Assembly: GCA_946544705.1 (NCBI GenBank)
Contig: CAMNMN010000011.1
Location: 2,408 to 66,407, forward strand
DNA length: 64,000 bases
From: an uncultured Bacteroidales bacterium
GTDB lineage: Bacteria; Bacteroidota; Bacteroidia; Bacteroidales; Paludibacteraceae
Direction: 5' to 3'
Of the stretch, positions 12,344 to 58,792 are shown piece by piece; position 1 is the stretch's first letter, and every line of letters starts with the position of its first letter. The notes beneath the pieces were generated by a model, which worked only from the letters and a program-made list of their open reading frames with translations, had not been told where the DNA came from and ran no database searches. A program made the position numbers and the translations under genes.

Positions 12344-12369
12344 TGTATTAAGATTTTGTAATTCGAGTG

Positions 12370-12377
12370 CAAAGATA
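12370..12377 (-). promoter_or_regulatory. -7 promoter box TATCTTTG for the GH32-MFS-fructokinase unit
   Basis: Plus-strand caaagata. 26 nt upstream of the ATG at 12343. Confidence 0.6.
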
Positions 12378-12408
12378 CACATTTTCATGCAAACAGGCAA
12401 ATAGAATT

Positions 12409-12465
12409 GTTGCAAAAAATAGCACGAATGTTGTAGCGCAACATATATTCCATTTTTTTGCAACA
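12409..12465 (-). promoter_or_regulatory. Candidate operator: three TTGCAA/GCAAC boxes upstream of the GH32 promoter
   Basis: gttgcaa-N22-gcaac-N17-gcaaca. The outer boxes form the inverted repeat TTGCAAAAAA/TTTTTTGCAA. The layout matches 21481-21536. Confidence 0.5.
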
Positions 12466-12511
12466 AAATGGTCAGTACAGGCGGTAATCATCCGCCTATA
12501 CCGAATAAGGA

Positions 12512-13366: not shown

Positions 13367-13380
13367 TAAATTTTAAAGGA

Positions 13381-15003: not shown

Positions 15004-15009
15004 AAGACA

Positions 15010-16407: not shown

Positions 16408-16463
16408 AATGATTATTTTTTCGATATTTCAATATTCCGAAAAGTCGGGATTTTCAAATACAA

Positions 16464-18212: not shown

Positions 18213-18258
18213 TTTTAGTCTTTTATCTTGATTCTTTTAGCGAAGCGATCATTGCTCC

Positions 18259-21200: not shown

Positions 21201-21378
21201 TACCATCGAAATCGGTAATCGTACCATTCGATGTACCTTCCTCCAGTACAGACGCTCCAATGATCGGCTCACCCGTAGCAGCATCCACCACGACACCCGT
21301 AGCGGTCACCTGCGCGTACGAAGCCATCGTGCAGCATACCATCAGGAGAAAGGCTAAGAACACACTTTTTTGTTTCAT
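18259..21378 (-). CDS. SusC-family TonB-dependent outer-membrane transporter
   Basis: Carboxypeptidase-regulatory-like N-domain (GVVVDAATGEPIIGASVLEEGTSNGTITDFDGNFSL), plug, and a C-terminal barrel ending in F. I start at MKQKSVFLAFLLMV (ATG 21378), not 21480. Confidence 0.92.
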   Translation of the reverse strand: MKQKSVFLAFLLMVCCTMASYAQVTATGVVVDAATGEPIIGASVLEEGTSNGTITDFDGNFSLPVGKDAMVVISYVGYKTQQLFPKANMKVSLAEDSEVLEEVVVTGYTTQRKADLTGAVSAISAKDLEKQQENNPMKALQGKVPGMNISADGNPSGTATVRIRGTGSLNSSNDPLYVIDGVPTTSGMHELNPNDIESIQVLKDAASASIYGSRAANGVIIITTKKGSEGKLSVSLDASVAVQNYVNRMHVLNSEQFGRAMWQAYVNDGTADPNTNVLGYHYDWGYNEQGQPVLNNIMLNKYLDAAGTVPVSNTDWFAQTTRPGVIQNYNISVSNGGKKGSAFFSLGYYKNDGIIKTTNFDRFSARVNSDYKMLNDIVTIGENFTLNRTSEVGAPGGYIESVLQYNPLLPVYTTNGDLAQAPSSSGFPQRENPLSILERNKDNRYTYWRLFGNVFININPIKGLNIRTTAGLDYAQKKQRFFTYPITEGVVANDKNAVEAKQEHWTKWMWNAIITYNLEIGKHRADFLLGTELNRQIDEWFSAYKEDFIVLNPTYMWPSAGTGIAQAYGGGGSFSLISFFGKANYSYDNRYLVSLTMRYDGSSRFGKNNRFAFFPSVSAGWRISQEKFMAGANSWLDDLKLRVSWGQTGNQDINATARYTIYDSNYGVNENGGQSYGTSYDIAGTNGGGILPSGFRRTQIGNDDIKWETTTQTNVGLDFSFFKQTFYGSFDWFYKQTKDILVLMTGIGVMGEGASQWVNAGAVDNMGVEFQLGYRNQTKGGFKYDISANISHYNNKVIDMPATVAASGAFGGNGVQSVVGHAIGSQVGYIADGIFKSQEEIDNHAYQEGAGLGRIRYRDINGDGVVSEADQTWIYSPIPAVAFGANFYFEYKGFDLTLFFQGVGGQQVITKDFKQQTDLWSGVNVANLNKGTRVLDAWSPSNPNSDIPALSTNNNNNETRVSTYFVEDGSFLKLRNLQLGYNLPKNACDKMKMQNWRWFVSAQNVFTIHSAKFTGVDPEVPTFGYPIPLTVTLGTKVTF

Positions 21379-21441
21379 GATATTGTTAATTTTGATTGTA
21401 AAAAAGCAATGTAGCGAAATCCGATTGCTCAAATTCCGCTG

Positions 21442-21449
21442 CAAAGATA
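21442..21449 (-). promoter_or_regulatory. -7 promoter box TATCTTTG for the susC operon
   Basis: Plus-strand caaagata, about 63 nt upstream of the susC ATG. Confidence 0.55.
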
Positions 21450-21480
21450 CGCGCATTTTGACACACACGCAAAAAATCAT

Positions 21481-21536
21481 GTTGCAAAATATGCCACTAA
21501 TGTTTCACTGCAACAAATGTGACATATTTTGCAACA
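21481..21536 (-). promoter_or_regulatory. Candidate operator: three TTGCAA/GCAAC boxes upstream of the susC promoter
   Basis: gttgcaa-N22-gcaac-N16-gcaaca. The outer boxes form a perfect 12-bp inverted repeat, TTGCAAAATATG/CATATTTTGCAA. The first box lies 39 nt from the -7 box, exactly as at 12409. Confidence 0.5.
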
Positions 21537-21563
21537 ATTATGCTATCCTACGCATGTTGTGTA

Positions 21564-23033
21564 TTAGCGCACGCTGGGGAGATGACCGAAGTACTCTTTA
21601 TAGCATTTGGTAAAATAGCCCGGGGAAGAAAAACAGAACTCTAACGATACTTGCTGGATTGTCATGTCGGTCGTGCGTAGCAGTTCGTCAGCGCGAATGA
21701 GGCGTCTCTCGCGGATATAGTCCAGCGGGCCTTTCCCTATTGCTGTCTTAGCGCGGCGGAAGAGCTGGGTGCGGCTCAACTGAAGCATTGTACCTAAATA
21801 TTCCACGCTCAGATTCGGGTCAGTCAGGTGCTCCTCTACTATCTGTTTCAGCCGTTCAGCAAACGCTTCGTCTTTGCGGCTCAACTGGATCGCCTCCTGC
21901 ATGTTCTCTAATTGAGGAAGAATTTCATGTTTGATCTCCGTCTGGATTTTTCGTTGCTTAAAGAGAATATATCCCAAGGTAATCAAAAATAGAGTGAAGA
22001 AAAACACCACAAACAGAATTAGGATAAATCGGTCCAGTTGTTGTTGCTTCCATTTGTTTTCTGTTTGAGTCTGCACGATGTGCAGGGTTTCTAGGTCACG
22101 CGTGATAGCTTCGTCCTGTTTTAACATCGGATATGCAGCGGTGACATCTACCAGCGCGGTCTCAAGCACCGTATCACGCACAAACGGCTCTTTATGCAAT
22201 ATATGCGCAGCTGCTTCAATGACCATATCCCCACGGGAGGAATAGGTTGCGGTACATTCTATTTTGCCATCTACAATAGCTTGCAATCCCGGTTTAATGC
22301 CATCGACTCCCATAATGGGGATATTCTTTTTGGTCGATAGTTCGCTGTCTTTTACCGCCTCAGACGCTCCTATCGCCATGAGGTCATTATGAGCTACAAT
22401 AAGATCAATATTATGATGCTTAGCCAGAAATTCAGAGACGACTGCATAGGCCTCTTCGCGATACCAGCTTCCCATAACCGAATGAACCTCTATTCGGGGA
22501 TTTATACCATCCATCATGCCTTGATGCCGGAGCGTAGCGGGAGTTGAACCCGGTAGACCGGCTACTTCAAGGATAGCCAAGGTGCGGCGTGTGGCAGGCG
22601 ATGGGAGATGGGAGTTGACCCATTGTGCCATAAGCGATCCTACTTTGTAGTTGTCTCCTCCGATGAAAGCGGTCCATTCGTCACCGGTGACGCGTCTGTC
22701 TGCTACAATTACGGGGATACCGGCTCTATAGGCACGTGTAACGGCGGGTTTGACCTGTTCTGCTTCATTCGGGCTGACAATCAGTAGATCCACCCGTTCG
22801 CTGATAAAACTGTCGATCTGGGCACATTGGAGTTCGTTACTGCCATAAGCAATACGGCGCGAGAGCGTCATCTCAGGATGCAGCAGCAGTTCGCGCTCCA
22901 TCTCATAGTTCATCTTCTGCCGCCACGCGTCGTCCAGACACTGGCTCACACCAATACGGTACTGAGGCTGCCGCGCAGTACACCCGACAAAAATGAAGGA
23001 CAGAAAAAGGATACCGATATAGAAGTTTTTCAT
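21564..23033 (-). CDS. Membrane-anchored one-component regulator: periplasmic sugar-binding (PBP type I) domain, TM helix, AraC-type HTH
   Basis: The N-terminal RIGVSQCLDDAWRQKMN..VDLLIVSPNEA..IPVIVADR..AHNDLMAIGA resembles the fructose-binding sensor domain of B. thetaiotaomicron BT1754. TM helix FILILFVVFFFTLFLITLGYILF. C-terminal AraC HTH. No HisKA, HATPase or REC module. Confidence 0.8.
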   Translation of the reverse strand: MKNFYIGILFLSFIFVGCTARQPQYRIGVSQCLDDAWRQKMNYEMERELLLHPEMTLSRRIAYGSNELQCAQIDSFISERVDLLIVSPNEAEQVKPAVTRAYRAGIPVIVADRRVTGDEWTAFIGGDNYKVGSLMAQWVNSHLPSPATRRTLAILEVAGLPGSTPATLRHQGMMDGINPRIEVHSVMGSWYREEAYAVVSEFLAKHHNIDLIVAHNDLMAIGASEAVKDSELSTKKNIPIMGVDGIKPGLQAIVDGKIECTATYSSRGDMVIEAAAHILHKEPFVRDTVLETALVDVTAAYPMLKQDEAITRDLETLHIVQTQTENKWKQQQLDRFILILFVVFFFTLFLITLGYILFKQRKIQTEIKHEILPQLENMQEAIQLSRKDEAFAERLKQIVEEHLTDPNLSVEYLGTMLQLSRTQLFRRAKTAIGKGPLDYIRERRLIRADELLRTTDMTIQQVSLEFCFSSPGYFTKCYKEYFGHLPSVR

Positions 23034-41964: not shown

Positions 41965-42485
41965 TATTTCAGTTCTAACTCTATAATTACATTTTCGTAG
42001 GGAGGAATTTTGTCCGTTCCCTGCATGCCATACGCGGTGTACCATGGTACATACATCCTTACTCGGCAACCTTGGTGCCATTCTTTGATATGTACGTCTA
42101 CGGCCAGCGGCAGTTCGTGTTTGCCGATACGGTAGGTGCCTTCAATATCCTCGAGCAGTTGTTCCTCCAAGTTGAATATCCGCATGTGCACCACCCATTC
42201 GTCATCCACCTTTGGAGTCGGGCTGTCTATATCTCCTCTCTCCAAGATAGTAACCCATATGTTACCTTCGTATAAAGCATAAGGCTCCTTTTGTTCCAAT
42301 GCCTTTTGCATCAGCATTTTGTCGGCAGCTTCCGCCAATTCCTTATTCAGTTGCATTAGGGCCAATGCAGCGCTATCGACCTGAGGAGTCTCTCCTTTTC
42401 GTTGGCTTGGGCGTTGCGGGGCTTGATGGCTACAACCGGCTGTTATCAGTACCGCGCAGAGCCATATGAACCATTTTTTACTCAC
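41964..42485 (-). CDS. FKBP-like lipoprotein (putative peptidyl-prolyl isomerase fold)
   Basis: Lipoprotein signal LCAVLITAGC. The C-terminal block VRMYVPWYTAYGMQGTDKIPPYENVIIELEL resembles the FKBP C-terminus (P..AYG......IP.n..l.f.veL). Confidence 0.5.
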   Translation of the reverse strand: MSKKWFIWLCAVLITAGCSHQAPQRPSQRKGETPQVDSAALALMQLNKELAEAADKMLMQKALEQKEPYALYEGNIWVTILERGDIDSPTPKVDDEWVVHMRIFNLEEQLLEDIEGTYRIGKHELPLAVDVHIKEWHQGCRVRMYVPWYTAYGMQGTDKIPPYENVIIELELK

Positions 42486-45400
42486 TGTTACCTTTCCTTT
42501 CTAATGCAGCGCGGCGATATTCGCTTGGTGTAATACCGTAGGTGTTCTTGAAGCATTTAGCGAAATAGCGGCTATCGTTCATGCCTACCATATAGGTCAC
42601 CTCTGTGATATTATATTGCCGCTCTTCCAATAATTGTGCGGCGCGTTTGATACGCATTTCGCGGATGAACTCTACCGGACTGAGACCTGTCAGACTCTTC
42701 AGTTTGTTGAAGAATACGGTTCGTCCCATGCCCATCTCTTCCACCAGTTCGTCAACTGTCAGGGTGTTATTGTCCATCTGCTTTTCCATCACATCCAGCA
42801 GTTTGGCCAGGAAGGCATCGCCCGGAATAGGCTCGTCTGCCTTCTGCGGCTCTAATCGCATTAAGCGCTGACGATAACTCTGCTCCAGCTGATCGCGTTG
42901 CACCAAAATATTATGCACTCTCGCCCGTAAATATTCGGGTTCAAATGGTTTTGTGACGTAGTCATCCGCTCCGAAGTCCAATGCTTGCAACCGGCTCTCG
43001 ATGGCGGTCTTGGCGGTCAGCAGAATGACAGGGATAAAATCAAAATCCCTGTTCTGTTTGATCCATTGCGTCAACTGCAGACCATCAATCTTCGGCATCA
43101 TCAGATCGGTCACAACCAGATCTATCTGTTTGGTACGGATGATCTCTTCTGCCTCCTCTCCGTCCGCTGCAGACTCGATATGATAATCATGGCTCAATAT
43201 CTTGGTCAGGAAATTGCGCATGTCCGTATTGTCGTCCACTACCAGTATAGTCCGAGGCATGTCTTGTTGCTCTTGCTCCAACTGCTCCATTTTGTCTTCG
43301 AAGGTAGGCGCAACAGCAGCTTGAGCCGAAGAGATATCATCGGCAATAAACTCTACACTCTCGTCAAAATGCTCCTTCCCGGTATGGAGTAGGATAGTGA
43401 TCTTGGTACCTTTCCCTACCTCGCTCTCTACCTCTATATAGCCATGATGCAAGTCCACTAATTCTTTGGTAAGGTTCATTCCGATACCTGTGCCTGTGAT
43501 GCCGGAATTATTCAGTTCGTTATTGCTGGAGAATCGCTCAAAGAGCACGTTTCGTTTCTCGGGCGCGATGCCTACTCCTTCGTCTTCTACCGCCAGCGTC
43601 ACGAATCCCGGTTTGGAATCAATGATGACTCGGATGGATTTACCGGCCGGAGTGAATTTGAATGCATTACTCAGCAGATTCCACAAGACGGTATCCATAC
43701 GCTCGCGGTCCACCCAGACGGTCGAATCCTCCGTCCGGTTTTCAATCTCAAAATGGATATGTTTCTCGTAGGCTTCTTTGCGGAAATTGGCGCTGGTCTC
43801 TTCTACCAAACTGCTCAGCATCGTCTGCTGCAGTTTCAGTTTCATCTTCTGGTTCTGTACCTTGCGGAATTCCAGCAGTTGGTTTACCATCCGCAGCATT
43901 CGTTGGCCATTACTCTGTACAATCTCCAACTGGCTGCGCACACTTTGGCTGATGCGCTCGTTCTGAAGGATGTTTTCAATAGGTGCGACGATCAGAGTCA
44001 GCGGAGTACGTAACTCGTGGCTGATATTGGTGAAGAACCGGAGTTTGATATCCGTCACTTGTTGCTCCACTATTACTTTTTGTCTCAGTCCGTTATACAC
44101 CGATACCGCATAAGCTACAAGTCCGATAAATAATATAATTCCTATGATGTATAACAGGATAGCCCACCATGACAGCCATTCGGGGGTCTTCACATGAATT
44201 ACCAATTGTTGCTCATTCTCTACCTCGATTCCTTCCCTATTGGTAGAACGGACATGAAAGACATAAGTGCCGTGATGCAGGTTGTTGTACGTCACATGTC
44301 GTATATCTTGCGCTTGTCGCCATTCTTTGTCAATGCCGTCCATCTTGTAATAATATACTATCTGGCTGGCACCTACAAAGTCCATAGCTGAATATTCGAT
44401 CTCAATATTGCTCTTATGGGGAATAGAAATCGTATCATCATAGAGTAGCGAGTCGGCTACTTCTATCCTGGTGATTCGCAGCGGAGGAACAGATTCGGAC
44501 CGATGGATTCGGCTGGGATCAAAAGAACAATAGCCGTTCGAGTAACCAAATAAAATCTGTCCGTCGGGAATGAGCAACGCTTCCGCTTCCGTGAAATAGA
44601 TATTTGCTTCTCCGTCCAATGCATCGTAATAGTAGAGGTCGCCTGTCTCCAAGTTCAGCTGGGTGATATTACTCTCCGAGGTAAACCAAAGGTTCTCTTT
44701 GTCACATGTCATACTGAGGATAATATCCTGGTAGGTCTCTACATGTGTAATCTCATGCGTCGTCTCTTTGGGATCCAGCGTCAGCAATCCGCCGCCGAAG
44801 GAGCCGAGCCACAGCCGCCCGTGGCTGTAACATAGCGCGCGAATATCATAGCTGGGAATAACGGTGCATTCCATATTCTGCAGATTGACCTTTAGAATAC
44901 CGGTTGTGGTACCGCACCATAGGCAATCGTCTACCATCTCGATATCACGCACTTTCATGCCGTTGCCTACCACTTGAGGCGCACTCCATCGATGGCCTTC
45001 ATGCCGCAGGATATTCACTCCTCCGCCGTATGTGGCGATATACAATGTGCTGTCTTCGCCTTCTTCGATATCATAGATATCGGGATGAGTTGTCGGGATC
45101 CGTTGCCCTTTCGCGCTGAGCAGACCTTTGCCTTTCGTGCCGTACAGCATTCCGAACGAACTCTCTAAAGCGCAATAGACGTTCGTCTCGGATTTAATCA
45201 TCTTGAGCACTTCTCCCTGATGCGTAATAGCAAATGCACGTACTTCGCCATTGTCATTCGGGCTGCGTCGCATGTCGTGCAGTTGGTAAGGAGTAGGTTC
45301 CATGTTGATGCAATCAACACCGCCGTCGTAGGTGGATATCCACATCAACCCGTCACGGTCAACGTAGGCGGTGTGGATCATGTTGGTCAACCCTTCTATC

Positions 45401-46038
45401 GGATAGACCAGTTCGTCTTTCTCGTAGTCATAGTAGCTCCATCCTCCGCCTGTCGGGTTTACCCACGTGCGTCCCTGCGCATCTTCCAGTAAGAAGAAAT
45501 GCTGCCTCAGCAATCCCGCGTAGCGGCTGTCCAATGGAGGAGTGAAGCGCTTCCATTGGCCGAAGCGGTAACGTAATATACCGTATTGGTCATCTGATTG
45601 CCATATCACGCCGCGGGAGTCCACTTTGGTGTGCTGCTCCGCATCGCTTATCTTTACCAGCATTCCCTCCGGCAGACTGTCGTATGGCTCCTCTATCGTT
45701 TCTTTGCGCGAAGCATCCAGACGATAGTAATGACCATCATAGGTAGCCCACCAAATCCGCTCTTGCTCATCCTCATAAATCATGTCCACGCGGTTGTTTA
45801 CCTGTGCTTCCTGGCCATTATGCATCGCTTTGAAGGTAACGAACTCATATCCGTCAAACCGGTTAAGGCCGTCCCATGTGCCAAACCACATGAAACCTTG
45901 CTTGTCCTGCATGATGGCCATCACAGTATTCTGGCTCATGCCGTCCTTGATGGAGTAATGCTGAACCACATAATGCTCATTCGCGCTGAGGCTTAGGGCG
46001 CATATTAGCACGCAGAGCGAAAGAATGAAACGCTTCAT
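42478..46038 (-). CDS. Hybrid two-component system regulator (periplasmic beta-propeller/Y_Y_Y sensor, HisKA, HATPase, REC, AraC HTH)
   Basis: H-box FTNISHELRTPLTLI, G-box GTGIGMNLTKELVDLHHG, receiver ILVVDDNTDM..DLVVTDLMMPKIDG, C-terminal AraC HTH. Confidence 0.93.
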   Translation of the reverse strand: MKRFILSLCVLICALSLSANEHYVVQHYSIKDGMSQNTVMAIMQDKQGFMWFGTWDGLNRFDGYEFVTFKAMHNGQEAQVNNRVDMIYEDEQERIWWATYDGHYYRLDASRKETIEEPYDSLPEGMLVKISDAEQHTKVDSRGVIWQSDDQYGILRYRFGQWKRFTPPLDSRYAGLLRQHFFLLEDAQGRTWVNPTGGGWSYYDYEKDELVYPIEGLTNMIHTAYVDRDGLMWISTYDGGVDCINMEPTPYQLHDMRRSPNDNGEVRAFAITHQGEVLKMIKSETNVYCALESSFGMLYGTKGKGLLSAKGQRIPTTHPDIYDIEEGEDSTLYIATYGGGVNILRHEGHRWSAPQVVGNGMKVRDIEMVDDCLWCGTTTGILKVNLQNMECTVIPSYDIRALCYSHGRLWLGSFGGGLLTLDPKETTHEITHVETYQDIILSMTCDKENLWFTSESNITQLNLETGDLYYYDALDGEANIYFTEAEALLIPDGQILFGYSNGYCSFDPSRIHRSESVPPLRITRIEVADSLLYDDTISIPHKSNIEIEYSAMDFVGASQIVYYYKMDGIDKEWRQAQDIRHVTYNNLHHGTYVFHVRSTNREGIEVENEQQLVIHVKTPEWLSWWAILLYIIGIILFIGLVAYAVSVYNGLRQKVIVEQQVTDIKLRFFTNISHELRTPLTLIVAPIENILQNERISQSVRSQLEIVQSNGQRMLRMVNQLLEFRKVQNQKMKLKLQQTMLSSLVEETSANFRKEAYEKHIHFEIENRTEDSTVWVDRERMDTVLWNLLSNAFKFTPAGKSIRVIIDSKPGFVTLAVEDEGVGIAPEKRNVLFERFSSNNELNNSGITGTGIGMNLTKELVDLHHGYIEVESEVGKGTKITILLHTGKEHFDESVEFIADDISSAQAAVAPTFEDKMEQLEQEQQDMPRTILVVDDNTDMRNFLTKILSHDYHIESAADGEEAEEIIRTKQIDLVVTDLMMPKIDGLQLTQWIKQNRDFDFIPVILLTAKTAIESRLQALDFGADDYVTKPFEPEYLRARVHNILVQRDQLEQSYRQRLMRLEPQKADEPIPGDAFLAKLLDVMEKQMDNNTLTVDELVEEMGMGRTVFFNKLKSLTGLSPVEFIREMRIKRAAQLLEERQYNITEVTYMVGMNDSRYFAKCFKNTYGITPSEYRRAALERKGNSE

Positions 46039-48056: not shown

Positions 48057-48059
48057 GTG

Positions 48060-48132
48060 TGGTGCCAACGGGAATCGAACCAGTGACACAAGGATTTTCA
48101 GTCCTTTGCTCTACCAACTGAGCTATGGCACC
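48060..48132 (-). tRNA. tRNA-Phe (anticodon GAA)
   Basis: Reverse complement GGTGCCATAGCTCAGTTGGTAGAGCAAAGGACTGAAAATCCTTGTGTCACTGGTTCGATTCCCGTTGGCACCA. It has a 7-bp acceptor stem, a canonical D-arm and anticodon loop CTGAAAA. CCA is not encoded. Confidence 0.95.
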
Positions 48133-49191: not shown

Positions 49192-50697
49192 ATGAAAAAG
49201 ACGATTCTTTTAGTATTTTCCATATTTTTGCTCGCGGGTGCGAGTGCGTTGAACGCGGATAACAGAAGCGCTGCCAAAGCGGATGGAGTATCGTCCAAGG
49301 CCGGTGTGCCTGCGGAATGCGAAGATGTCATGTTGCAGGCATTCTATTGGGACAGTTACAAGGCTAAGACGAGCACGGACAGCAAGTTCGGTCGTACGAA
49401 ATGGATTGATTTGCTCAAAGACACGGCGGCCATCAATGCCAATTTTGACGTCGTATGGTTTCCGCCAAGTGCCGGTCCGACGGGTTGCGGCGTGGGTTAC
49501 TCCGCCAAGCAGTATAGCAATCAGGAGAGCGACTGGGGTACCAAAACGGCGTTGAGCAACCTGATTAACGCGCTGCATAAAGGCAATACCAAGGTGCTGG
49601 CGGATGTAGTGCTGAACCATCGCGGTAACCTGTCGAATTGGTGCAATTTCTGGACGGATAACTTCGGCAGTTACGGTACGTTTACCTTGACGCAGAAAGA
49701 GATCTGCCGTAACGACGAGGGCTTTACGAATACGAAATCCTCTTGTTACGGCGCGGACTATACAGACCGCGGAGCGAACGATACGGGCGATAATTTTGAT
49801 GGTGCACGCGATTTGGATCATCAGAGCGAGGTGGTACAAAACTGGTCGAAGGCTTATACGCAATGGTTGTTGAACACGATGAAATACGACGGATTCCGGT
49901 ACGATATGACCTTGGGTTTCCATGGTCGGTATCTGAAGATGTACAACGAAGCGGCTCAGCCGTATATGTCCGTTTCGGAGTTGTGGCAAAGTATAAATCG
50001 TCAGAAACAGCATTTGGAAGAGTGCGAATATAATACGATGGTGTTTGATTTCCAGGCGAAATACTCGATGAAGGGGATCGTAACCGGTTCGTACGGCAAG
50101 TTGAATGCAAACAAGGCGTTTGAGGGGCTGCGCAAGCATGGTCTGGAGCGTTATTCGGTGACGTTCATCGACAACCATGATACGTTTGACCGCGGGACGG
50201 CGTACGGCGATAACCAGTTTACCCCGACTACTGATCTGACGACAACGACGAACAAAGATTACGTTTTGCAGGCGAGTGCGTATATGCTGATGATGCCCGG
50301 TGTACCGTGTGTGTTCTATCCGCATTGGGCGAGTTACAAGGAGGAAATCAATGAGTTGATTGCCGTTCGCAAGCGTGTAGGAATTCATAGTGAGTCGGAC
50401 GTGCTGGAGGAGACGAGCGGACAGTATCAATATAGCGCAACGGTTCAGGGACATCGCGGCAAGGTGATCGTGCGTGTAGGCAAATACCGCAGTAAGACGC
50501 AGCCGGAAGGGTATGAGTTGGCGGTAGAAGGCGGAGACAGAGGTAATTACACCGTATATGTTAGCATGGATCAGCAGGGCGTGGAGGAAGTTGATCTTCC
50601 GGAGACCGGTGTTCGAAAGATTATTTACAACGGGCAGGTGTATTTCCTCCGCGAAGGCAAGACGTATACCTTAACCGGAAGTGAAATAAAAGAATGA
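49192..50697 (+). CDS. Secreted GH13 alpha-amylase with the shared C-terminal tail
   Basis: Signal peptide. GH13 regions DVVLNHRG, DGFRYDMTLG, VSELWQ, FIDNHDT, and an MLQAFYWDSY N-terminus. Ends KIIYNGQVYFLREGKTYTLTGSEIKE. Confidence 0.9.
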   Translation: MKKTILLVFSIFLLAGASALNADNRSAAKADGVSSKAGVPAECEDVMLQAFYWDSYKAKTSTDSKFGRTKWIDLLKDTAAINANFDVVWFPPSAGPTGCGVGYSAKQYSNQESDWGTKTALSNLINALHKGNTKVLADVVLNHRGNLSNWCNFWTDNFGSYGTFTLTQKEICRNDEGFTNTKSSCYGADYTDRGANDTGDNFDGARDLDHQSEVVQNWSKAYTQWLLNTMKYDGFRYDMTLGFHGRYLKMYNEAAQPYMSVSELWQSINRQKQHLEECEYNTMVFDFQAKYSMKGIVTGSYGKLNANKAFEGLRKHGLERYSVTFIDNHDTFDRGTAYGDNQFTPTTDLTTTTNKDYVLQASAYMLMMPGVPCVFYPHWASYKEEINELIAVRKRVGIHSESDVLEETSGQYQYSATVQGHRGKVIVRVGKYRSKTQPEGYELAVEGGDRGNYTVYVSMDQQGVEEVDLPETGVRKIIYNGQVYFLREGKTYTLTGSEIKE

Positions 50698-50708
50698 AAG
50701 GGAGGACG

Positions 50709-52544
50709 ATGAAGAGGTTTTTAAATTTAATAGTGTTAGCGTGCGCTTGCGCGAGTGTGTGGGCGAGCAACTATGGTATTTTGGTGAACGGCAATACCTA
50801 TTTTGCCGGAGAACCGGCGGGTGAGTATGAGGGATTTCAGCAGTACTTGGCGCATGTGCAGGTGTCTAATGGCGACCAGTTCCAGTTGTATGACGCGGAA
50901 AATCAAGCGGCATGGGCTGTAGATCTGAATACTTATTCTGTAGCAGGATTCACGCGTTCGGGCGATCATTATGTATCGAGCGTGAGTGGCTGCTATGATT
51001 TTTATATCAAACTGAAATGGGAACAAGATGAGTTGTATATAGGCAATGGTTCGAATTGCGGAGCCGGCGAAGATATACATGATATCTATACGGGCGCCGT
51101 TCCTCGCCAGTGTGAAGCGGTGATGATGCAGGCTTTTTATAACGAGTCGTATAGTGCTACTTCGCCGGGTGTGAGCGAGTATGGCGATACCAAATGGACT
51201 ACTTTGACGCCTCAAGCAACCGAGTTGGGCCGGTATTTCGACTATATATGGTTGCCGCCGAGTGCGTACGGAGACGGTGCAGGGTACCATCCGAAACAAT
51301 ACAGCAACCAGAACTCCAACTGGGGCACGCGCGCAGAACTGGATGCGCTGATAAGTGCGTTGCATAACGCGGGAACCAAAGTGGTGGCGGACATCGTGAT
51401 CAACCACTGCGCGAACAAGAGTACTTGGTGCGATTTCTACGAGATGGATTTCGGCGAATACGGCGTGTTCCATCCGGATGAGACGTATATCTGTTCGAAT
51501 GACGAGGTGAATGCCGAATGGAACCGACCGACGGCAACGAGCGATGGTTCAGGCGCTTGTTGGGGAACGGCTTCCGGTAGTCCGGATGACGGAGATAACT
51601 GGGACGGCGCACGCGACTGGAGTCATGACAAAGTGTATGTGCAGCAGATGTTCATCGCTTATCTGCAATGGATGCGCAATGTGATGCACTATGACGGCTT
51701 CCGCTATGACAAAGGCGACGGTTTCAATAACTGGCATCATTATAACTATAACAAACATGCGAAGCCGGAGATCGCTTTCATGGAGAGTTATAACGGTACC
51801 GATGCTATCCAGGGACAGATTAACGGCGCGCAGGGTGATCTGATGGCTCTTGATTTTGATCTCAAATGGCATGTGTTCAATTCGTTTGCCGGCTGGGATT
51901 ACAGCCGCGGTCGCGGAGACTGTTTGATGAGTCGCGGTGACGGAAAACATTCGGTTACGTTCATTGAGAGTCACGACTGGTTCCTTCGGCCGGATAACGA
52001 GAATGAGTTCGGCGGACGCGGCAATTCCATGACTCCGGCGCTGAAAGGTCGTCTGATGCAGGCGAACGCTTTTCTGCTGTCCATGCCGGGTGTGCCGTGT
52101 GTGTTCTATCCGCATTGGGCGAAATACAAAGCCGATCTGAAACCGATGATTATTGCTCGCAAATGGGCAGGCGTACACAGCGAAAGCGAAGTGCGGGATG
52201 AGTATTCGACCGCTACGGGTTATCAGGCTACGGTAGTAGGAAAGAACGGATGGCTCATCCTGTGTCTGGGAGATAGAGCGAACGGGCAAGGTTTCGGTCC
52301 GGACTATCAGTTGGCGGCAAGTAACTACAACACGCAAGACGGACATAATGAGAGTTTCGAGATTTGGGTGAATAGTTCGAAGGAGAAACCGAATCCCGAA
52401 CTCAATACGGGTATAGAACAGCCTACCTCCGACTCCTCTATACAGGGAAGAGGGGAGAAATTCGTCAAGGACGGCCAACTCTATATTCGCTGTGGCGAAC
52501 AGGTGTATGATATAATGGGACAACAAATAAATAAAATACGATGA
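50709..52544 (+). CDS. Secreted GH13 alpha-amylase with the unassigned ~100-aa N-terminal module and the shared C-terminal tail
   Basis: Signal peptide MKRFLNLIVLACACASVWA (an alternative ATG at 50694 overlaps the upstream stop). DIVINHCA, DGFRYDKGDG, FMESYNG, FIESHDW. Ends KFVKDGQLYIRCGEQVYDIMGQQINKIR. Confidence 0.88.
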   Translation: MKRFLNLIVLACACASVWASNYGILVNGNTYFAGEPAGEYEGFQQYLAHVQVSNGDQFQLYDAENQAAWAVDLNTYSVAGFTRSGDHYVSSVSGCYDFYIKLKWEQDELYIGNGSNCGAGEDIHDIYTGAVPRQCEAVMMQAFYNESYSATSPGVSEYGDTKWTTLTPQATELGRYFDYIWLPPSAYGDGAGYHPKQYSNQNSNWGTRAELDALISALHNAGTKVVADIVINHCANKSTWCDFYEMDFGEYGVFHPDETYICSNDEVNAEWNRPTATSDGSGACWGTASGSPDDGDNWDGARDWSHDKVYVQQMFIAYLQWMRNVMHYDGFRYDKGDGFNNWHHYNYNKHAKPEIAFMESYNGTDAIQGQINGAQGDLMALDFDLKWHVFNSFAGWDYSRGRGDCLMSRGDGKHSVTFIESHDWFLRPDNENEFGGRGNSMTPALKGRLMQANAFLLSMPGVPCVFYPHWAKYKADLKPMIIARKWAGVHSESEVRDEYSTATGYQATVVGKNGWLILCLGDRANGQGFGPDYQLAASNYNTQDGHNESFEIWVNSSKEKPNPELNTGIEQPTSDSSIQGRGEKFVKDGQLYIRCGEQVYDIMGQQINKIR

Positions 52545-54379
52545 AAAAAACAGGATTGATTTTAGTGGCCATGTTGTGCTGTGCGATGGGATGGGCAGCA
52601 AGTTATGGCATTTTGGTGAACGGGAAGATGTATTTCGCCGGAAGTTTAGTGGATGAGTTTGAGGGTTTTACCCAGTATCTGGCACATGTACAGGTGTCGA
52701 AGGGAGATTACTGCCAGCTCTATGACGCGGATAACAAAGCGGCTTGGGCAGTGGCGTTGAATACCTATTCGGTACCCGGATTTACGTATGATGCCTCGGC
52801 GAACCGCTATACGGTTTCGGTGGATGGTTGCTATGATTTCTACATCAAGTTGAAGTACGAGCAGGATGAGTTGTATATCGGTGACGGCTCTAATTGCGGT
52901 GAAGGTCAGGACATCAGTGGCGGCGGAGAGATAGACCCGGGTTATTCGGGTTCGGCTCCGGCACAATGTCCGGATGTGATGCTGCAGGCATTCTATTGGG
53001 ACAGTTATAACGGATCGCTGCCGACGACCAAATACGGTCGTACCAAATGGATAGACCTGGTCAACGGTAACAGCGGTTCGAGTGCTGAAGAAATGGGGCA
53101 ATGGTTCGATATGGTATGGTTACCGCCTATGTCGGCCGGTAGCGGTACGGGATATCACCCGACCAACTACGGAAGACTGGAAAGCGATCGTGGAACAAAA
53201 TCCAAGTTGGTGGAACTGATAGAGATCCTGCATAAGAACGGTGCACGCGTGATAGCGGATATTGTGATCAACCATGCGGATGCGCAAGAGGGATGGTGTA
53301 ACTTCAAGTCGTATGACTTTGGTTCGTACGGTAAGTTTACACCCGACGGGTCGTATATCTGCAGCACGGACGAGATGAATACATCTGCTCCTACGACGGC
53401 CTGTCGCGGTTATGCTACGGGGGCCGCGGACGACGGTTACGGCGACGAGGCGAACTATGCCGCGTCACGCGACTGGGATCATACGAATGCTGAGGTGCGC
53501 GATATGTTCAAGGCATATCTCAAATGGATGCGTAATGAAGTCAAAGTGGACGGTTTCCGCTATGACTACTGCAAGGGATATCACAACAGCCATATCAATG
53601 AGTATAACCGCGCGGCTGAGGCTTATTTCAGTGTCATGGAATACTGGGACGGTAATGTGAATACGCTCCAGAGCCGTCTGAGCGATGCCGGATGGAATAC
53701 CGCTACCTTCGATTTTGCCACCAAATATACGGCGTTCAATGACGGTATAGCAGCTGACAACTATTGGAAACTGCAGGGCGCCGGTCTGCCGGGTGCAGGC
53801 AAGGCACGTTACGCCGTGACGTTTATCGACAGCCATGACGGTTTCCAGCGCAATGACAATGAGTTCTGCGGCAACGGCAACTCCATGACGATTTGTAAGG
53901 ACAAGGTGCTCATCTGCAATGCTTATATGCTGTCGATGCCGGGTGTGCCGTGTGTGTTCTGGCCGCACTGGGTGACCTTCAAGGACCAAATAAAGAAGAT
54001 GATCAACGCCCGCTATAAAACAGGCGTACACAGCGAGAGCAGTGTGACCGACGAATCGGTAGGAGACGGCTACTACAAGGCTACTATCAACGGTACGAAC
54101 GGTTCGATCCGTCTGTTGTTAGGTCCCAACTCGGGGTATAACTCGACACCGTCGGGTTACACGTTAGCAGTAAAAGGAACCAACTACGGCGTATATTACA
54201 AGTCGGACGGAACGCGCGGAGACAAGAACACCGAGCGCAAAGACCGCACGCAGGGCATCGAAGAGATCACCTCCGGATCTTCCCTCCAAGGGAAAGGGGA
54301 GAAGTTCATCCAGGATGGTCAGTTGCTGATCCGGGTGGGTGAACAGGTGTTTGATGCGTTCGGACGCAGAGTGAAGTAA
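52541..54379 (+). CDS. Secreted GH13 alpha-amylase, paralog with the same N-terminal module and C-terminal tail
   Basis: ATGA start/stop overlap with the upstream gene. DIVINHAD, DGFRYDYCKG, VMEYWDG, FIDSHDG. Ends KFIQDGQLLIRVGEQVFDAFGRRVK. Confidence 0.9.
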   Translation: MKKTGLILVAMLCCAMGWAASYGILVNGKMYFAGSLVDEFEGFTQYLAHVQVSKGDYCQLYDADNKAAWAVALNTYSVPGFTYDASANRYTVSVDGCYDFYIKLKYEQDELYIGDGSNCGEGQDISGGGEIDPGYSGSAPAQCPDVMLQAFYWDSYNGSLPTTKYGRTKWIDLVNGNSGSSAEEMGQWFDMVWLPPMSAGSGTGYHPTNYGRLESDRGTKSKLVELIEILHKNGARVIADIVINHADAQEGWCNFKSYDFGSYGKFTPDGSYICSTDEMNTSAPTTACRGYATGAADDGYGDEANYAASRDWDHTNAEVRDMFKAYLKWMRNEVKVDGFRYDYCKGYHNSHINEYNRAAEAYFSVMEYWDGNVNTLQSRLSDAGWNTATFDFATKYTAFNDGIAADNYWKLQGAGLPGAGKARYAVTFIDSHDGFQRNDNEFCGNGNSMTICKDKVLICNAYMLSMPGVPCVFWPHWVTFKDQIKKMINARYKTGVHSESSVTDESVGDGYYKATINGTNGSIRLLLGPNSGYNSTPSGYTLAVKGTNYGVYYKSDGTRGDKNTERKDRTQGIEEITSGSSLQGKGEKFIQDGQLLIRVGEQVFDAFGRRVK

Positions 54380-54419
54380 ATTATAATTACAAGTTGTTAA
54401 ATAACAAAATAACACTATT

Positions 54420-55295
54420 ATGAAAAAGATTTTTACATTATTGGCTGCGGTTGCAGTTGCAGCTTGTGCGATGGCCGGCAGTTACGGCATCTTAGTGAAC
54501 GGAACCACCTATTTCGCAGGTGAGCCTGCCGGTGAGTTCGAGGGTTTTCAACAGTATTTGGCGCATGTGCAGGTGAAGTCCGGTGACTTCTGCCAGCTCT
54601 GCGACGCGGAGAACAGGGCCGTATGGGCGGTAGATCTCAACACGGCTTCGGTAGAGGGATTCACCCGTAACGGAAACCAGTACAGTGTGGCGGTGGACGG
54701 TTGCTATGACTTCTACATCAAGTTGAAGTACGAGCAGGACGAGTTGTATATCGGTCCGGGTTCCGACTGCGGTGAAGGTATTGATATCAGCGGTGGCGGC
54801 CAAGGCGGTCAAGGCGGAGATGAGGATGTGGACTTCTACGCTATCGGTTGGATCAACGGAGCCGACCACGGAGAGGCTGCGTACGACACGTACGAGGATG
54901 AGTACCTGTTTGTGGATGGTAAGTTAACAATCGACTGCAAGATGGGTAGCTATATCGCTATCAAGGACCATCTGGGTAATTTCTATTACTCCAAGACCGA
55001 GACAACGATTGCCAACGAGTCGGTCACGATGGACTGGGCAAACGGATGGACTCCTTGCCAGAAATGGGCTATCCCGGAGGGTGTGAACTATATCATTATC
55101 CGCGAAGCGGCATGCAAGGGACAGATCAAGTTGGAGCGCGTGGACAAGGCTACCTATGATGCGTATCATTTCGGCGGCGACCAAGCTATCGAGAACACGA
55201 CCGTTAATGAGAAAGCACACAAAGTGGTAATTAACGGTCAGTTGCGTATCGTCCGCGGCGATAAGATATTTGACGCTACCGGACGTGAGTTATAA
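54420..55295 (+). CDS. Secreted non-catalytic protein: shared N-terminal module, Gly-rich linker, second beta-rich module, shared C-terminal tail
   Basis: Signal peptide. The N-terminal 99 aa are homologous to the two upstream amylases. No GH13 regions. Linker GGGQGGQGGDED. Ends KVVINGQLRIVRGDKIFDATGREL. Confidence 0.8.
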   Translation: MKKIFTLLAAVAVAACAMAGSYGILVNGTTYFAGEPAGEFEGFQQYLAHVQVKSGDFCQLCDAENRAVWAVDLNTASVEGFTRNGNQYSVAVDGCYDFYIKLKYEQDELYIGPGSDCGEGIDISGGGQGGQGGDEDVDFYAIGWINGADHGEAAYDTYEDEYLFVDGKLTIDCKMGSYIAIKDHLGNFYYSKTETTIANESVTMDWANGWTPCQKWAIPEGVNYIIIREAACKGQIKLERVDKATYDAYHFGGDQAIENTTVNEKAHKVVINGQLRIVRGDKIFDATGREL

Positions 55296-55341: not shown

Positions 55342-57363
55342 ATGAAAAAGATTTATATACTGATAGCAGTCCTCGTTTATGCGGCGGGGGTGTTGGCTGC
55401 TAACTGGAATGATGTGGCAGGTGTTGAGCCGGTAGAGCGTACCCGTCCTGCAGGTGTGACGAATGGTATTTACTATGGTGCGGATGGCACTTCCGTGACC
55501 CTATGTACCTATGCCGCCAGCAAAACGCAATCCGCCAAGCGCGTGTTCCTGTTGGGCGATATGACCAACTGGAAACTCAGCGCGGACTATCAGTTGTTCA
55601 AAGACGGTAATTATTTCTGGATTACGTTAACCGGTTTAACTCCCGGACAGGAGTATCGTTTCCAGTACGCGGTAGAGCGTGCGGATGGTTTGAAAAAACA
55701 GATCTCGGATCTGTATTCGGAGAAAGTGCTGCACCCGGACGATCAGTATGAACCGAAGAAAGTGGATCCCAATTTATTGGATTATCCTGCAGGCAAAGGC
55801 GCAGACGGCTATGTGACGGTTATCCAGCCGGGCAAGCCGAAGTACCAATGGTCGGATGCTACGCTCCATTTTCAGCGTCCGAACAAGAACAACCTCGTTA
55901 TCTACGAGTTGTGGATCTATGATTATACCGAAGGACGCTCGTTGAAGGGATTGATGAAGCGTCTGGATTATATCCAAAACTTGGGTGTGAATGCGGTGGA
56001 GTTGATGCCGATTTGCGAGTTTGACGGAAACTATAACTGGGGTTATTCGCCGAACCATTATTTTGCGCCGGATAAAGCGTACGGCACGGAGGAGATGTAC
56101 AAGACGTTCATCGATGAGTGTCATAAACGCGGCATGGCGGTGATCCTTGATATGGTTTTCAACCATGCTACGGGACTCAATCCGATGAACAAACTCTATC
56201 CGTATGGTTCGGATTTGGCGAATAACCCGTGGTTTAACGTCAACGCGCCGCATAGCGATAATGTCTATGAGGACTGGAATCACGGTTTCGAGCCGGCGCA
56301 TGAGATGTTTATCCGGGCGTTGAAGTATTGGTTAACGGAGTACAAGGTGGATGGTTTCCGTTTGGATCTCAGTCATGGTCTTTGTTCGGACAAACCGAAT
56401 ACCTCGGTGGGCAACCTCAAGGACTATTACGACAAAGGCGTCAAGGCCGTTTCTCCCGATGCGTATATGATCTGTGAGCACTGGGGCAGTAATATGGGGA
56501 CGGAGCGTCCTCAGTTGGTCAGCTACGGTATGCAGTGCTGGTCGAATACGTCTAATGCGTATTGCCAGACAGCGATGGGATGGCTCAAGGATGGTGACGG
56601 TTTTGGAGAAGCCAATAAAGACGGCTATGTATCTTATTGCGAGAGCCACGATGAAGAGCGAATGCAGTACAAAGTGAAGCAGTACGGAAACGGAGACCTG
56701 AAGACCAATACCGCTGCTCGTCTGGCGCGTGTGCCGGAGAACGTAGCGTTCAATGTGCTGCTGAACGGATCGCATATGCTTTGGATGTGGGAGGAGGTCG
56801 GTTATGACTTCTCAATCAACTGTGATATCGACCATCCCAATGCGTACAACGAGAGCTATCGATGCAGCAAGAAACCCCGTCCGGAGATTCGCTCCTATTT
56901 CACCAATAAGGACCGTGTGGCGGCGTTTACCAAGTGCGCGCAAGTGATAACCCTGCGTACGCAGTTGATGCCGGGGGTCTTCGAGGGTAACCCGACGAGT
57001 CAAAATATCAGTTCCGGGGACAAACTGCGTAAGATCCAATGGGGCAGCAATGTGTTTGCTGCGGCGAATTTCGATGTGACGAGCAATCAAGCCGTCACGC
57101 TGCCTTCCGGTACATGGTACGACTATCTGAACGGCGCTACGCGCGCTAACGGCACTTATACCCTTGCTCCGGGTGAGTTGAAGGTCTTTACCGGTACGCC
57201 GGTTATTGCGCCGACATTTGAGGATATCAACAAACGTGAAACGCAGGGTTTTGAAGAAGTACAAATGGATCAAGTACCAAGTACCAAGTTCTTCCACGAC
57301 GGGCAGATTCTCATTCGCCGCGGAGACAATATCTATACGATTACGGGCGAGCGCGTAAAATAA
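55342..57363 (+). CDS. Secreted GH13 enzyme (pullulanase/neopullulanase-like, with an N-terminal Ig-like/CBM48-like domain) carrying the shared C-terminal tail
   Basis: DMVFNHAT, VDGFRLDLSHG, MICEHWG, YCESHDEE. Ends KFFHDGQILIRRGDNIYTITGERVK. Confidence 0.88.
   Translation: MKKIYILIAVLVYAAGVLAANWNDVAGVEPVERTRPAGVTNGIYYGADGTSVTLCTYAASKTQSAKRVFLLGDMTNWKLSADYQLFKDGNYFWITLTGLTPGQEYRFQYAVERADGLKKQISDLYSEKVLHPDDQYEPKKVDPNLLDYPAGKGADGYVTVIQPGKPKYQWSDATLHFQRPNKNNLVIYELWIYDYTEGRSLKGLMKRLDYIQNLGVNAVELMPICEFDGNYNWGYSPNHYFAPDKAYGTEEMYKTFIDECHKRGMAVILDMVFNHATGLNPMNKLYPYGSDLANNPWFNVNAPHSDNVYEDWNHGFEPAHEMFIRALKYWLTEYKVDGFRLDLSHGLCSDKPNTSVGNLKDYYDKGVKAVSPDAYMICEHWGSNMGTERPQLVSYGMQCWSNTSNAYCQTAMGWLKDGDGFGEANKDGYVSYCESHDEERMQYKVKQYGNGDLKTNTAARLARVPENVAFNVLLNGSHMLWMWEEVGYDFSINCDIDHPNAYNESYRCSKKPRPEIRSYFTNKDRVAAFTKCAQVITLRTQLMPGVFEGNPTSQNISSGDKLRKIQWGSNVFAAANFDVTSNQAVTLPSGTWYDYLNGATRANGTYTLAPGELKVFTGTPVIAPTFEDINKRETQGFEEVQMDQVPSTKFFHDGQILIRRGDNIYTITGERVK
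57271..57290 (+). repeat. Short GTAC-word array in frame just before the C-terminal tail
   Basis: caagtaccaagtaccaagtt, encoding QVPSTKF. Confidence 0.6.
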
Positions 57364-57364
57364 A

Positions 57365-58006
57365 ATGTATATAGCAATCGCAGGAAATATCGGTGCAGGC
57401 AAGACGACGCTGACGAAGATGTTAGCGAAGTATTACGGATGGGAGCCGCGGTTTGAGTCCGTGAATTTCAATCCGTACCTGGAGGACTATTATGGTGACA
57501 TCCAGCGGTGGGCGTTTTGCCTGGAGACATATTTCCTCAAGGAGCGATACAAAGACATGCAAGCCGTTCAGCGTGCGGGACATACGATTGTGCAGGACCG
57601 CTCGATTTACGAGGGTGTGTATGTCTTCGTGCGCAATAACTACGAGCGAGGAGATCTCAGTCAGCGGGATTTTGAGACGTTTATGGAACTCTTTGACCTC
57701 ATGAAGTCGCAGATGAAGATGCCCGATCTGATGATTTATCTTCGTAAGTCCGTACCGGCGCTCATCGCGCAGATACAGAAACGCGGAAGGGATTATGAGC
57801 AGACCATGCAGATCGACTACCTCAAGGACCTGAACGACAAATACGAGGATTTCATCTATCATAAGTACGAAGGCCGCGTACTGGTGATCGATTCGGACGG
57901 AATGGATTTTGAGAACAACCCTGCGGACTTCCGCAAAGTGATTGACAAGGTCGATGCGGAACTCTTCGGACTCTTCAGCGAAAATAACTGGAATAATAAC
58001 CAATAA
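57365..58006 (+). CDS. Deoxynucleoside kinase (dAK/dCK/dGK family), paralog 1
   Basis: P-loop IAIAGNIGAGKTTL, VQDRSIYEG, and the arginine-rich lid QIQKRGRDYEQ. Confidence 0.88.
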   Translation: MYIAIAGNIGAGKTTLTKMLAKYYGWEPRFESVNFNPYLEDYYGDIQRWAFCLETYFLKERYKDMQAVQRAGHTIVQDRSIYEGVYVFVRNNYERGDLSQRDFETFMELFDLMKSQMKMPDLMIYLRKSVPALIAQIQKRGRDYEQTMQIDYLKDLNDKYEDFIYHKYEGRVLVIDSDGMDFENNPADFRKVIDKVDAELFGLFSENNWNNNQ

Positions 58007-58138: not shown

Positions 58139-58792
58139 ATGCATATAGCAGTAGCAGGAAATATTGGTTGCGGCAAAACGACGTTAACCAATATGTTAGC
58201 CAAACATTATGGCTGGGAGCCGCGCTTCGAGAGCGTGGAGTATAATCCCTATCTGTCGGATTTCTATGCCGATATGGCGCGATGGTCCTTTAACTTGCAG
58301 GTTTATTTTCTGAACAAACGCTTCAAGGATGTCATCGAGATCGGCAAGCAGGATAAGTACATCATTCAGGACCGTACTATCTATGAGGACGCGCGTATCT
58401 TTGCGCCGAACCTGCACAAGCAAGGATTCATGTCCGACCGGGATTTCGATAACTATACAGATCTCTTTGATCTGATGATGTCCTTGGTAAAGATGCCGGA
58501 TCTGCTGATCTACGTGCGCGCTTCGCTGCCTACTTTAGTCGCGCAGATTCAGAAACGCGGAAGGAACTACGAGCAGTCCATCCAGCTGGACTACCTGCAG
58601 GGTCTGAATGACCTCTATGAGAATTGGATCAAGGAATACAAGGGCAAACTGCTGATCATCGAGGGTGATAAGATTAAGTTCGGCGAGAATCCCGAGGATT
58701 TCCGGTGGGTTACTGACCGCATTGATGCCGAGCTCTTCGGTCTCTTCCCGTTTGAAAGCGAAGCAACCACCGGAAAAGAGATAGCAGGGTGA
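58139..58792 (+). CDS. Deoxynucleoside kinase, paralog 2
   Basis: P-loop IAVAGNIGCGKTTL, IQDRTIYED, QIQKRGRNYEQ. Clearly homologous along its length to the upstream paralog by eye (identity not counted). Confidence 0.88.
   Translation: MHIAVAGNIGCGKTTLTNMLAKHYGWEPRFESVEYNPYLSDFYADMARWSFNLQVYFLNKRFKDVIEIGKQDKYIIQDRTIYEDARIFAPNLHKQGFMSDRDFDNYTDLFDLMMSLVKMPDLLIYVRASLPTLVAQIQKRGRNYEQSIQLDYLQGLNDLYENWIKEYKGKLLIIEGDKIKFGENPEDFRWVTDRIDAELFGLFPFESEATTGKEIAG

Follow-up and report, generated by a model that had tools for sequence, protein, structure and literature searches.

In a 64,000-nucleotide stretch of an uncultured Paludibacteraceae genome (order Bacteroidales; contig CAMNMN010000011.1, here called the window), three consecutive genes of an amylase cluster encode proteins that share an N-terminal module of about 100 residues. 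This module is probably a very divergent X25/SusE-like alpha-glucan-binding module, whose role would be to hold secreted amylases, and surface proteins that lack catalytic activity, on starch. A starch-binding module family is the most likely identity because the predicted fold is of the SusE/SusF type and because the module keeps almost exclusively the company of starch enzymes and starch-binding modules. The existence of the family, the fold, the partner domains and the genomic contexts come directly from the computation; ligand binding, the binding residues and a location at the cell surface are what we infer.

The module is carried by two alpha-amylases of glycoside hydrolase family 13 (GH13), AmyB and AmyC, and by a non-catalytic protein of 291 residues. 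The three copies are:

50766–51062, plus strand: module copy 1, AmyB residues 25–123 (protein and DNA alignments)
52598–52900, plus strand: module copy 2, AmyC residues 20–120, with a two-residue insertion (TYDASANRY) (alignments)
54477–54773, plus strand: module copy 3, residues 20–118 of the 291-residue protein (AlphaFold2 model; conservation)

All three copies stand directly behind the signal peptide and end at a conserved Cys-Gly; the module would form the mature N-terminus after removal of the Sec signal peptide. The N-terminal ~150 residues of the three proteins are 64–65% identical (74% mean column identity), while the modules alone reach 72–77% pairwise identity and their DNA 83% mean column identity. 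The likeness among the three copies is far beyond chance. A sequence-only reading of this DNA had described an N-terminal module of ~100 residues in three consecutive proteins, and the open reading frames (ORFs), translations and alignments bear this out. The consensus written at that time agrees with the alignment, and Pfam confirms that the module is attached to two GH13 enzymes and one non-catalytic protein.

Sequence searches placed the module in no known family. It had been called unassigned, and the searches uphold that description: neither Pfam nor NCBIfam nor the PDB sequences yield a match. Among the Pfam models of starch-binding carbohydrate-binding modules (CBMs), which included CBM_20, CBM_21, CBM_25, CBM26, CBM_48 and others as well as CBM41 and CBM53, none matches over the module in the three proteins at E≤1; this search was able to detect these families, since the same models match other regions of relatives. 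NCBIfam likewise gives nothing over the module at E≤1, and PF22058, PF16411 and PF14292 match none of the three proteins at that threshold. Three profiles of rising diversity and a whole-protein profile found nothing significant among PDB sequences. CAZy families without a Pfam model (CBM58, 69, 74, 82, 83 and recent ones) were compared through PDB sequences where a structure has been solved, and none matched. Homologues in metagenome-assembled genomes (MAGs) of Paludibacteraceae are named ‘hypothetical protein’, ‘alpha-amylase family glycosyl hydrolase’ or ‘leucine-rich repeat protein’, and all 753 homologues of the 291-residue protein are ‘hypothetical’. In the literature we found no paper describing such a domain, and nothing specific on Paludibacteraceae amylases. 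The module is a previously unannotated one, set apart by Pfam, NCBIfam and PDB only, and a candidate for a new CBM family or for a far outlier of X25.

The predicted fold is more informative. The domains of SusE and SusF are X25 starch-binding modules (PMC9112005), of which SusE has two and SusF three in tandem (PMC4173775). An AlphaFold2 model of the module, built from a 29-sequence alignment, is a ten-strand all-beta structure (pLDDT 96.2, pTM 0.88). The seven matches that Foldseek ranks highest in the PDB all belong to starch-active proteins: SusE with alpha-cyclodextrin (4fem; prob 0.97, TMq 0.55), SusE with maltoheptaose (4fch; prob 0.84, TMq 0.56), SusF (prob 0.96, TMq 0.57) and, from Klebsiella, a maltohexaose-forming amylase (9us3, 9us4, 9us6). 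The sequence-only reading had suggested a fold comparison and had not considered X25; by fold the module is not without relatives, the match being of the SusE/SusF type.

The model of the whole 291-residue protein (pLDDT 81.8) shows the module at residues 22–122, a disordered Gly/Gln linker, a second beta domain, a further linker and a three-strand tail. The parts behind the module are:

54834–55169, plus strand: second beta domain, residues 139–250 (pLDDT ~90; Foldseek alignment to SusE)
55215–55292, plus strand: three-strand part of the tail, residues 266–291 (three-strand meander in the AlphaFold2 model)

Foldseek matches this protein to SusE (4fem_A, E=5.3e-5, prob 1.00, ~243 columns; 4fch_A, E=4.9e-4) and to SusF (4fe9_A, E=9e-3). 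The match is specific and spans both domains, given its ~243 columns and given that the next match has E=0.06 and prob 0.09. The two beta domains (22–122 and 139–250) align to the two domains of SusE, as a tandem of beta-sandwiches. An origin of the two domains by internal duplication was considered and rejected, as hhalign finds no relation between them.

X25 modules—present in SusE, SusF, Ruminococcus bromii Sas20 and Sca5, and the pullulanase of Bacillus acidopullulyticus (PF22058, PF16411; PDB 4FEM, 4FCH, 4FE9)—are the best and the sole specific fold matches of the module. Both are beta-sandwiches of ~100–120 residues, both are found on GH13 enzymes as well as, in tandem, in surface proteins without catalytic function, and they often share one polypeptide (34/93 relatives). 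When the module profile was aligned by hhalign to an X25 profile made from the partner proteins, 57 columns were matched with P=4.5e-4 and a probability of 33%; the same alignment puts the near-invariant Trp of the module on the second conserved Trp of X25. Remote homology between the two is suggested by this, not proved. An X25 profile iterated on the partner proteins gave only insignificant overlaps with the module (iE 2.8–48). There are also clear differences: in structural alignment the module is only ~12–16% identical to SusE, and no Pfam X25 or SusF_SusE model matches it at E≤1; it lacks the loop that bears the first platform Trp of X25; it has a signature of its own (YGILVNG...GCYDFYIKLK...LYIG) and a covarying Cys pair; and its hosts carry signal peptides of the Sec type and end in a short, distinct tail, unlike SusE and SusF, which are lipoproteins of SusC/D loci.

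The relation to other starch binders is more distant. CBM20, 21, 25, 26, 41, 48, 53 and 58 resemble the module in predicted function, size class, beta-sandwich architecture and attachment to GH13 enzymes, and it co-occurs with CBM20, CBM26 and CBM48-type modules; however, no Pfam model of these families matches it, there is no PDB sequence match, and none is among the top fold matches. CBM69 and the N domain of MalS-type GH13_19 enzymes are likewise N-terminal beta domains of alpha-amylases, and the Klebsiella amylase (9us3, 9us4, 9us6) stands among the top fold matches. The MalS N domain, homologous to that of the 9us3-type amylase, has been proposed to be CBM69-like (PMC10223318). Here the fold scores are weak (TMq 0.38–0.46, E 0.18–1), and there is no sequence similarity.

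The module belongs to a sizeable family. A word-indexed search, which returned short fragments only, had given the picture of a small family; this was overturned by an exhaustive hidden Markov model (HMM) search of 1.84 billion representative proteins, with 410 clusters at E≤1e-3, of which 211 also pass E≤1e-10; most of the family is from ruminant Paludibacteraceae. When one genome per species was scanned, 148 matching stretches came to light. The best 80 of the 148 fall in 72 distinct loci and come from MAGs of Paludibacteraceae or unclassified Bacteroidales, the hosts, where named, being ruminant or horse. One distant member comes from a Bacilli MAG. In relatives the module may be N-terminal, internal or C-terminal, single or in arrays of up to five: P0066 has five copies, and P0085 has a GH13 domain followed by two copies and a Por_Secre_tail of the type IX secretion system (T9SS). 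Placement of this kind is typical of CBMs. A further relative, P0135, shows 20 short partial matches to profile positions 3–32.

Across 255 instances the conserved positions (profile numbering) are Y2, G3, N7, G8, Y26, G36-D37, D/N43, W50, Y77-D78, Y80, K82, D88, Y91 and G93; the near-invariant residues of copy 3 are Y22, Y46, W69, Y99, K101 and Y110 in the numbering of the 291-residue protein. The position of the Trp is occupied by W or F in 238 of the 255. The Cys of the GCYD motif covaries with another ~22 residues further on (C95 and C117 in the 291-residue protein): both are present in 112 instances, neither in 51, and 30 are mixed (p=3e-20). Such covariation suggests a disulfide closing the domain, in agreement with the C-terminal boundary drawn in the sequence-only reading; the module is probably closed by this disulfide (GC...C).

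Partner domains were determined by Pfam scans of 93 representative multidomain relatives. X25_BaPul_like is found in 34 of the 93 proteins, CBM26 in 18, AMPK1_CBM (CBM48-type) in 13, CBM_20 in 12, Alpha-amylase (GH13) in 11, and CBM53, CBM_48 and SusF_SusE in one each. Beyond these, only surface repeats of a generic type and sorting domains occur as partners (BspA leucine-rich repeats (LRRs), Flg_new, Big_2, Fn3_assoc, Por_Secre_tail), and no CBM or GH specific for a glycan other than alpha-glucan occurs in these relatives. The possibility that the X25, CBM26 and CBM20 matches were the module under another name was rejected: in ten proteins scanned singly, the best stretch per domain shows no overlap of coordinates. 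The earlier suggestion that the module is distributed like a substrate-targeting module agrees with these exclusively alpha-glucan-specific partners and with the SusE/SusF fold match. Two distant lineages provide genomic context of an independent kind. In the Bacilli MAG (locus L073, 4276–14505) a two-copy module lipoprotein is encoded directly downstream of a 952-residue alpha-amylase, and at another locus (L076, 2205–9411) a module member adjoins a CBM_48 protein and an ABC sugar-binding protein. Also encoded in the L073 cluster are a Flg_new protein and other lipoproteins that either bear the module or are unannotated, and module proteins of the Gram-positive relatives have lipoprotein-type signal peptides (…SACDNG, …GACNN).

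A mechanism can be proposed from these features. A predicted surface platform, made up of the near-invariant Trp (W69), the aromatic residues Y46, Y99 and Y110, and the polar K101 and D/N, would receive a helical alpha-1,4-glucan chain. On AmyB and AmyC the module would hold the endo-amylase on starch granules or amylopectin. The 291-residue protein, with its module and second SusE-like domain, would be a non-catalytic starch binder, with a role like that of SusE and SusF in the Bacteroides Sus system. Relatives with arrays of two to five copies together with X25, CBM26, CBM20 and BspA-type LRRs may function as multivalent starch adhesins. Among them, five proteins of 1,000–3,251 residues (P0066, P0070, P0076, P0101 and P0112) combine three to five copies with X25, CBM26 and CBM20 and with BspA-type LRR or Flg_new repeats; by their domain content these giant multi-copy relatives are candidate multivalent starch adhesins.

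Several observations weigh against a starch-binding role. The module has no significant sequence match to any known CBM, and the hhalign probability to X25 is only 33%. The single-domain Foldseek E-values are weak (0.16–0.7), with TM-scores of ~0.55, and the whole-protein match to SusE has a low TM-score because the orientation of the domains differs. The maltooligosaccharide platform of X25 consists of two conserved Trp residues (PMC9112005), and in the hhalign alignment the first of these has no counterpart in the module; conserved aromatics of the module (Y26, Y80 and Y91 in profile numbering) might stand in its place. Finally, the LRR/BspA and Flg_new repeats borne by many relatives would fit a general adhesion or assembly role equally well.

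The module could instead serve assembly or anchoring: like cohesin-dockerin or SH3b domains, it would bind protein, the cell envelope or itself, and would draw amylases and non-catalytic proteins together in a surface complex instead of binding starch. We consider this unlikely. Single copies on enzymes and up to five on non-catalytic proteins do make a scaffold-like distribution, the LRR_5/BspA and Flg_new surface repeats co-occur with the module, and there is a recurrent SH3-like motif: module residues 22–56 (e.g. 54540–54644) show a local likeness over ~35 residues to the RT-loop-to-distal-hairpin part of spectrin SH3 (…GD…L…W.V…; E 0.013–0.05), while Pfam SH3_10/SH3_2 are listed for some members, with 0 stretches passing. 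This likeness is never significant, however; it covers ~35 of the ~60 residues of an SH3 domain, and the fold search yields SusE/SusF and neither SH3 nor cohesin. An SH3 or SH3b identity was rejected on these grounds, and the stretch is probably a convergent beta-hairpin motif. The same module is moreover found on both the ‘enzyme’ and the ‘scaffold’ side, unlike in two-partner docking systems; its glycan-specific partners are all alpha-glucan binders, and it is typical of CBMs to cluster in this way; and a separate conserved C-terminal tail (described below) is the likelier sorting or anchoring element.

Binding to some other glycan—plant cell-wall, host or microbial capsule—would place the amylases on feed particles. 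CBMs on an enzyme can target neighbouring polymers, and with one X25 platform Trp missing the specificity could have shifted. We nevertheless find this quite improbable, since the partners in the 93 relatives include no domain specific for a non-alpha-glucan, the nearest folds belong to starch binders in complex with cyclodextrin or maltoheptaose, and in three lineages the module genes adjoin GH13 and CBM48 genes. Little credence is likewise given to an inert Ig/FN3-like spacer or folding domain without a ligand. Beta-sandwich spacers are common in surface enzymes of Bacteroidota, but strong conservation (YGILVNG, W, GCYDFYIKLK, LYIG) over 255 instances and two phyla is unusual for a spacer, and the module is a principal folded part of non-catalytic proteins: P0066 has five copies, and the 291-residue protein one plus one further beta domain. 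A divergent X25/SusE-like alpha-glucan-binding module is the reading that we prefer to these.

A wider proposal is more doubtful, and we offer it tentatively. The module may found a new CBM family and, with the common C-terminal tail, may mark a SusC/D-independent secreted starch-capture system in rumen Paludibacteraceae; the components of this system would be several GH13 amylases that bear the module, a two-domain binder resembling SusE, and giant multi-copy adhesins combining the module with X25, CBM26, CBM20 and BspA-LRR. Such a system would be the Gram-negative equivalent of the amylosome of R. bromii, and rumen Bacilli would have related versions made of lipoproteins. In R. bromii, a gut starch specialist, Sas20 and Sca5 are non-catalytic multi-module X25-type starch binders beside many GH13 enzymes (PMC9112005). 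The multi-copy relatives of the module follow the same logic. They differ in that R. bromii is Gram-positive and its system is assembled by cohesins and dockerins, whereas the module proteins have neither of these and carry another C-terminal tail or a T9SS C-terminal domain (CTD).

Animal productivity and acidosis are driven by the fermentation of starch in rumen and hindgut, where the uncultured Paludibacteraceae are abundant. The hundreds of module protein clusters are annotated only as ‘hypothetical’ or plain ‘alpha-amylase family’, which makes the starch-binding capacity of the Paludibacteraceae invisible to current annotation of carbohydrate-active enzymes. If the proposed function is true, there would be grounds for a new CBM family or for extending the X25 group formally; annotation of rumen metagenomes would be improved, a compact starch-targeting tag of ~100 residues would be available, and SusE/F-type binders would be seen to operate outside SusC/D loci.

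The amylase cluster itself comprises five tightly packed genes on the same strand, each ending in a tail found by a tail HMM:

49192–50697, plus strand: AmyA, secreted GH13 alpha-amylase, 501 residues (Pfam Alpha-amylase E=3.5e-12); tail at 50560–50694
50694–52544, plus strand: AmyB, 616 residues, with signal peptide, module copy 1, GH13 alpha-amylase (Pfam E=8.8e-10) and C-terminal tail at 52410–52541
52541–54379, plus strand: AmyC, 612 residues, with signal peptide, module copy 2, GH13 alpha-amylase (Pfam E=6.2e-15) and C-terminal tail at 54250–54376
54420–55295, plus strand: 291-residue non-catalytic protein, with signal peptide, module copy 3, Gly/Gln linker, second beta domain, linker and C-terminal tail at 55170–55292
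55342–57363, plus strand: GH13 of debranching/TreZ-like type, 673 residues, with a weakly CBM48-like N-terminus (Pfam Alpha-amylase E=1.3e-23, CBM_48 E=1e-3); tail at 57225–57360

AmyA and the 673-residue GH13, which has a partial NCBIfam TreZ match (1.3e-44), bear the common tail without the module. The translations of AmyB and AmyC show all four GH13 catalytic signature regions, and AmyC is of the plant type, its nearest solved structure being barley AMY2 (1amy, E=6.8e-33). The 291-residue protein has no catalytic domain. The order of AmyA, one to three module-bearing amylases, a module-bearing non-catalytic protein of ~295 residues and a debranching-type GH13 is conserved in Paludibacteraceae across many species-level genomes. 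In these syntenic loci only GH13 genes, and no SusC or SusD, surround the gene of the 291-residue type; in the window the single SusC/D pair (16464–21480) belongs to a GH32 fructan polysaccharide utilisation locus ~28 kb from the amylase cluster. A lipobox Cys is not conserved in the orthologue consensus of the 291-residue protein (MKKIF..FAA......M.AASYG). Although SusE-like in fold, this protein does not belong to the lipoproteins of SusC/D loci.

Upstream of the cluster, at a distance of 3 kb, lies a hybrid two-component regulator (42478–46038, minus strand) with a Reg_prop/Y_Y_Y sensor, HisKA, HATPase, a receiver and an AraC HTH; between it and the cluster are rmlA-like and UbiA-like genes, a tRNA-Phe gene (48059–48132, minus strand) and a TrmO gene. 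The cluster is directly followed by two tandem genes for paralogous P-loop proteins of ~215 residues (57365–58006 and 58139–58792, plus strand), which share the motif AGNIG.GKTTL and end in ...VDAELFGLF; from their translations only, they look like deoxynucleoside kinases.

The sequence-only reading had attributed the near-identity of one stretch of copies 2 and 3 to recent duplication or gene conversion. Recent duplication is not supported by the comparison with other genomes, and was rejected: the closest orthologues elsewhere are 92%, 87% (copy 1) and 86% (copy 2) identical, compared with 72–77% among the paralogues in the window. The triplication is old, since orthologues are closer than paralogues of the same genome and many MAGs keep the same order of genes. 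For a short tract, gene conversion is plausible. A 57-nt tract of copy 2 (52826–52882, plus strand; GCYDFYIKLKYEQDELYIG) is nearly identical to 54699–54755 of copy 3; the 2/57 nt differences reported earlier are real, and the position, formerly put at about 52828–52884, has been corrected. Most paralogue pairs in other genomes show 8–17 differences over this tract. Within the 21-codon stretch VDGCYDFYIKLKYEQDELYIG (about 52820–52882), which adds V94-D95 upstream, synonymous differences number 3/21 compared with 26/57 outside it (Fisher p=0.016, for a tract picked post hoc). The tract is likely a sporadic short gene-conversion patch. Two other loci, L009 (3937–6852; 1/57) and L006 (2262–5916; 2/57), have near-identical patches of their own between adjacent module paralogues, and short-tract conversion seems to recur independently in other Paludibacteraceae genomes. 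The L009 patch includes a shared amino-acid variant, YGADELYIG.

The tail that ends all five cluster proteins is ~45 residues long and reads roughly qGiEe-(7–10 residues)-KfvkdGQlyIrrGdkiYditGreik. It matches neither Pfam Por_Secre_tail nor the T9SS models of NCBIfam. The tail HMM also matches the C-termini of three more secreted proteins of the window (ORFs 2–3763 and 3767–4750, plus strand, and 12512–13366, minus strand). Among representative module proteins the tail lies at the extreme C-terminus in 42 of 139, and six others bear a canonical T9SS CTD instead. The tail appears to be a C-terminal signal for sorting or anchoring that is specific to the lineage and so far undescribed.

The third of these ORFs lies in the middle of the fructan utilisation locus, which is complete (10886–23033, minus strand):

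10886–12466, minus strand: GH32
12512–13366, minus strand: 284-residue ORF bearing the C-terminal tail of the amylase cluster
13381–15003, minus strand: BT1760-like GH32
15010–16407, minus strand: DUF4960 protein
16464–18212, minus strand: SusD
18259–21480, minus strand: SusC
21564–23033, minus strand: periplasmic-binding/AraC regulator

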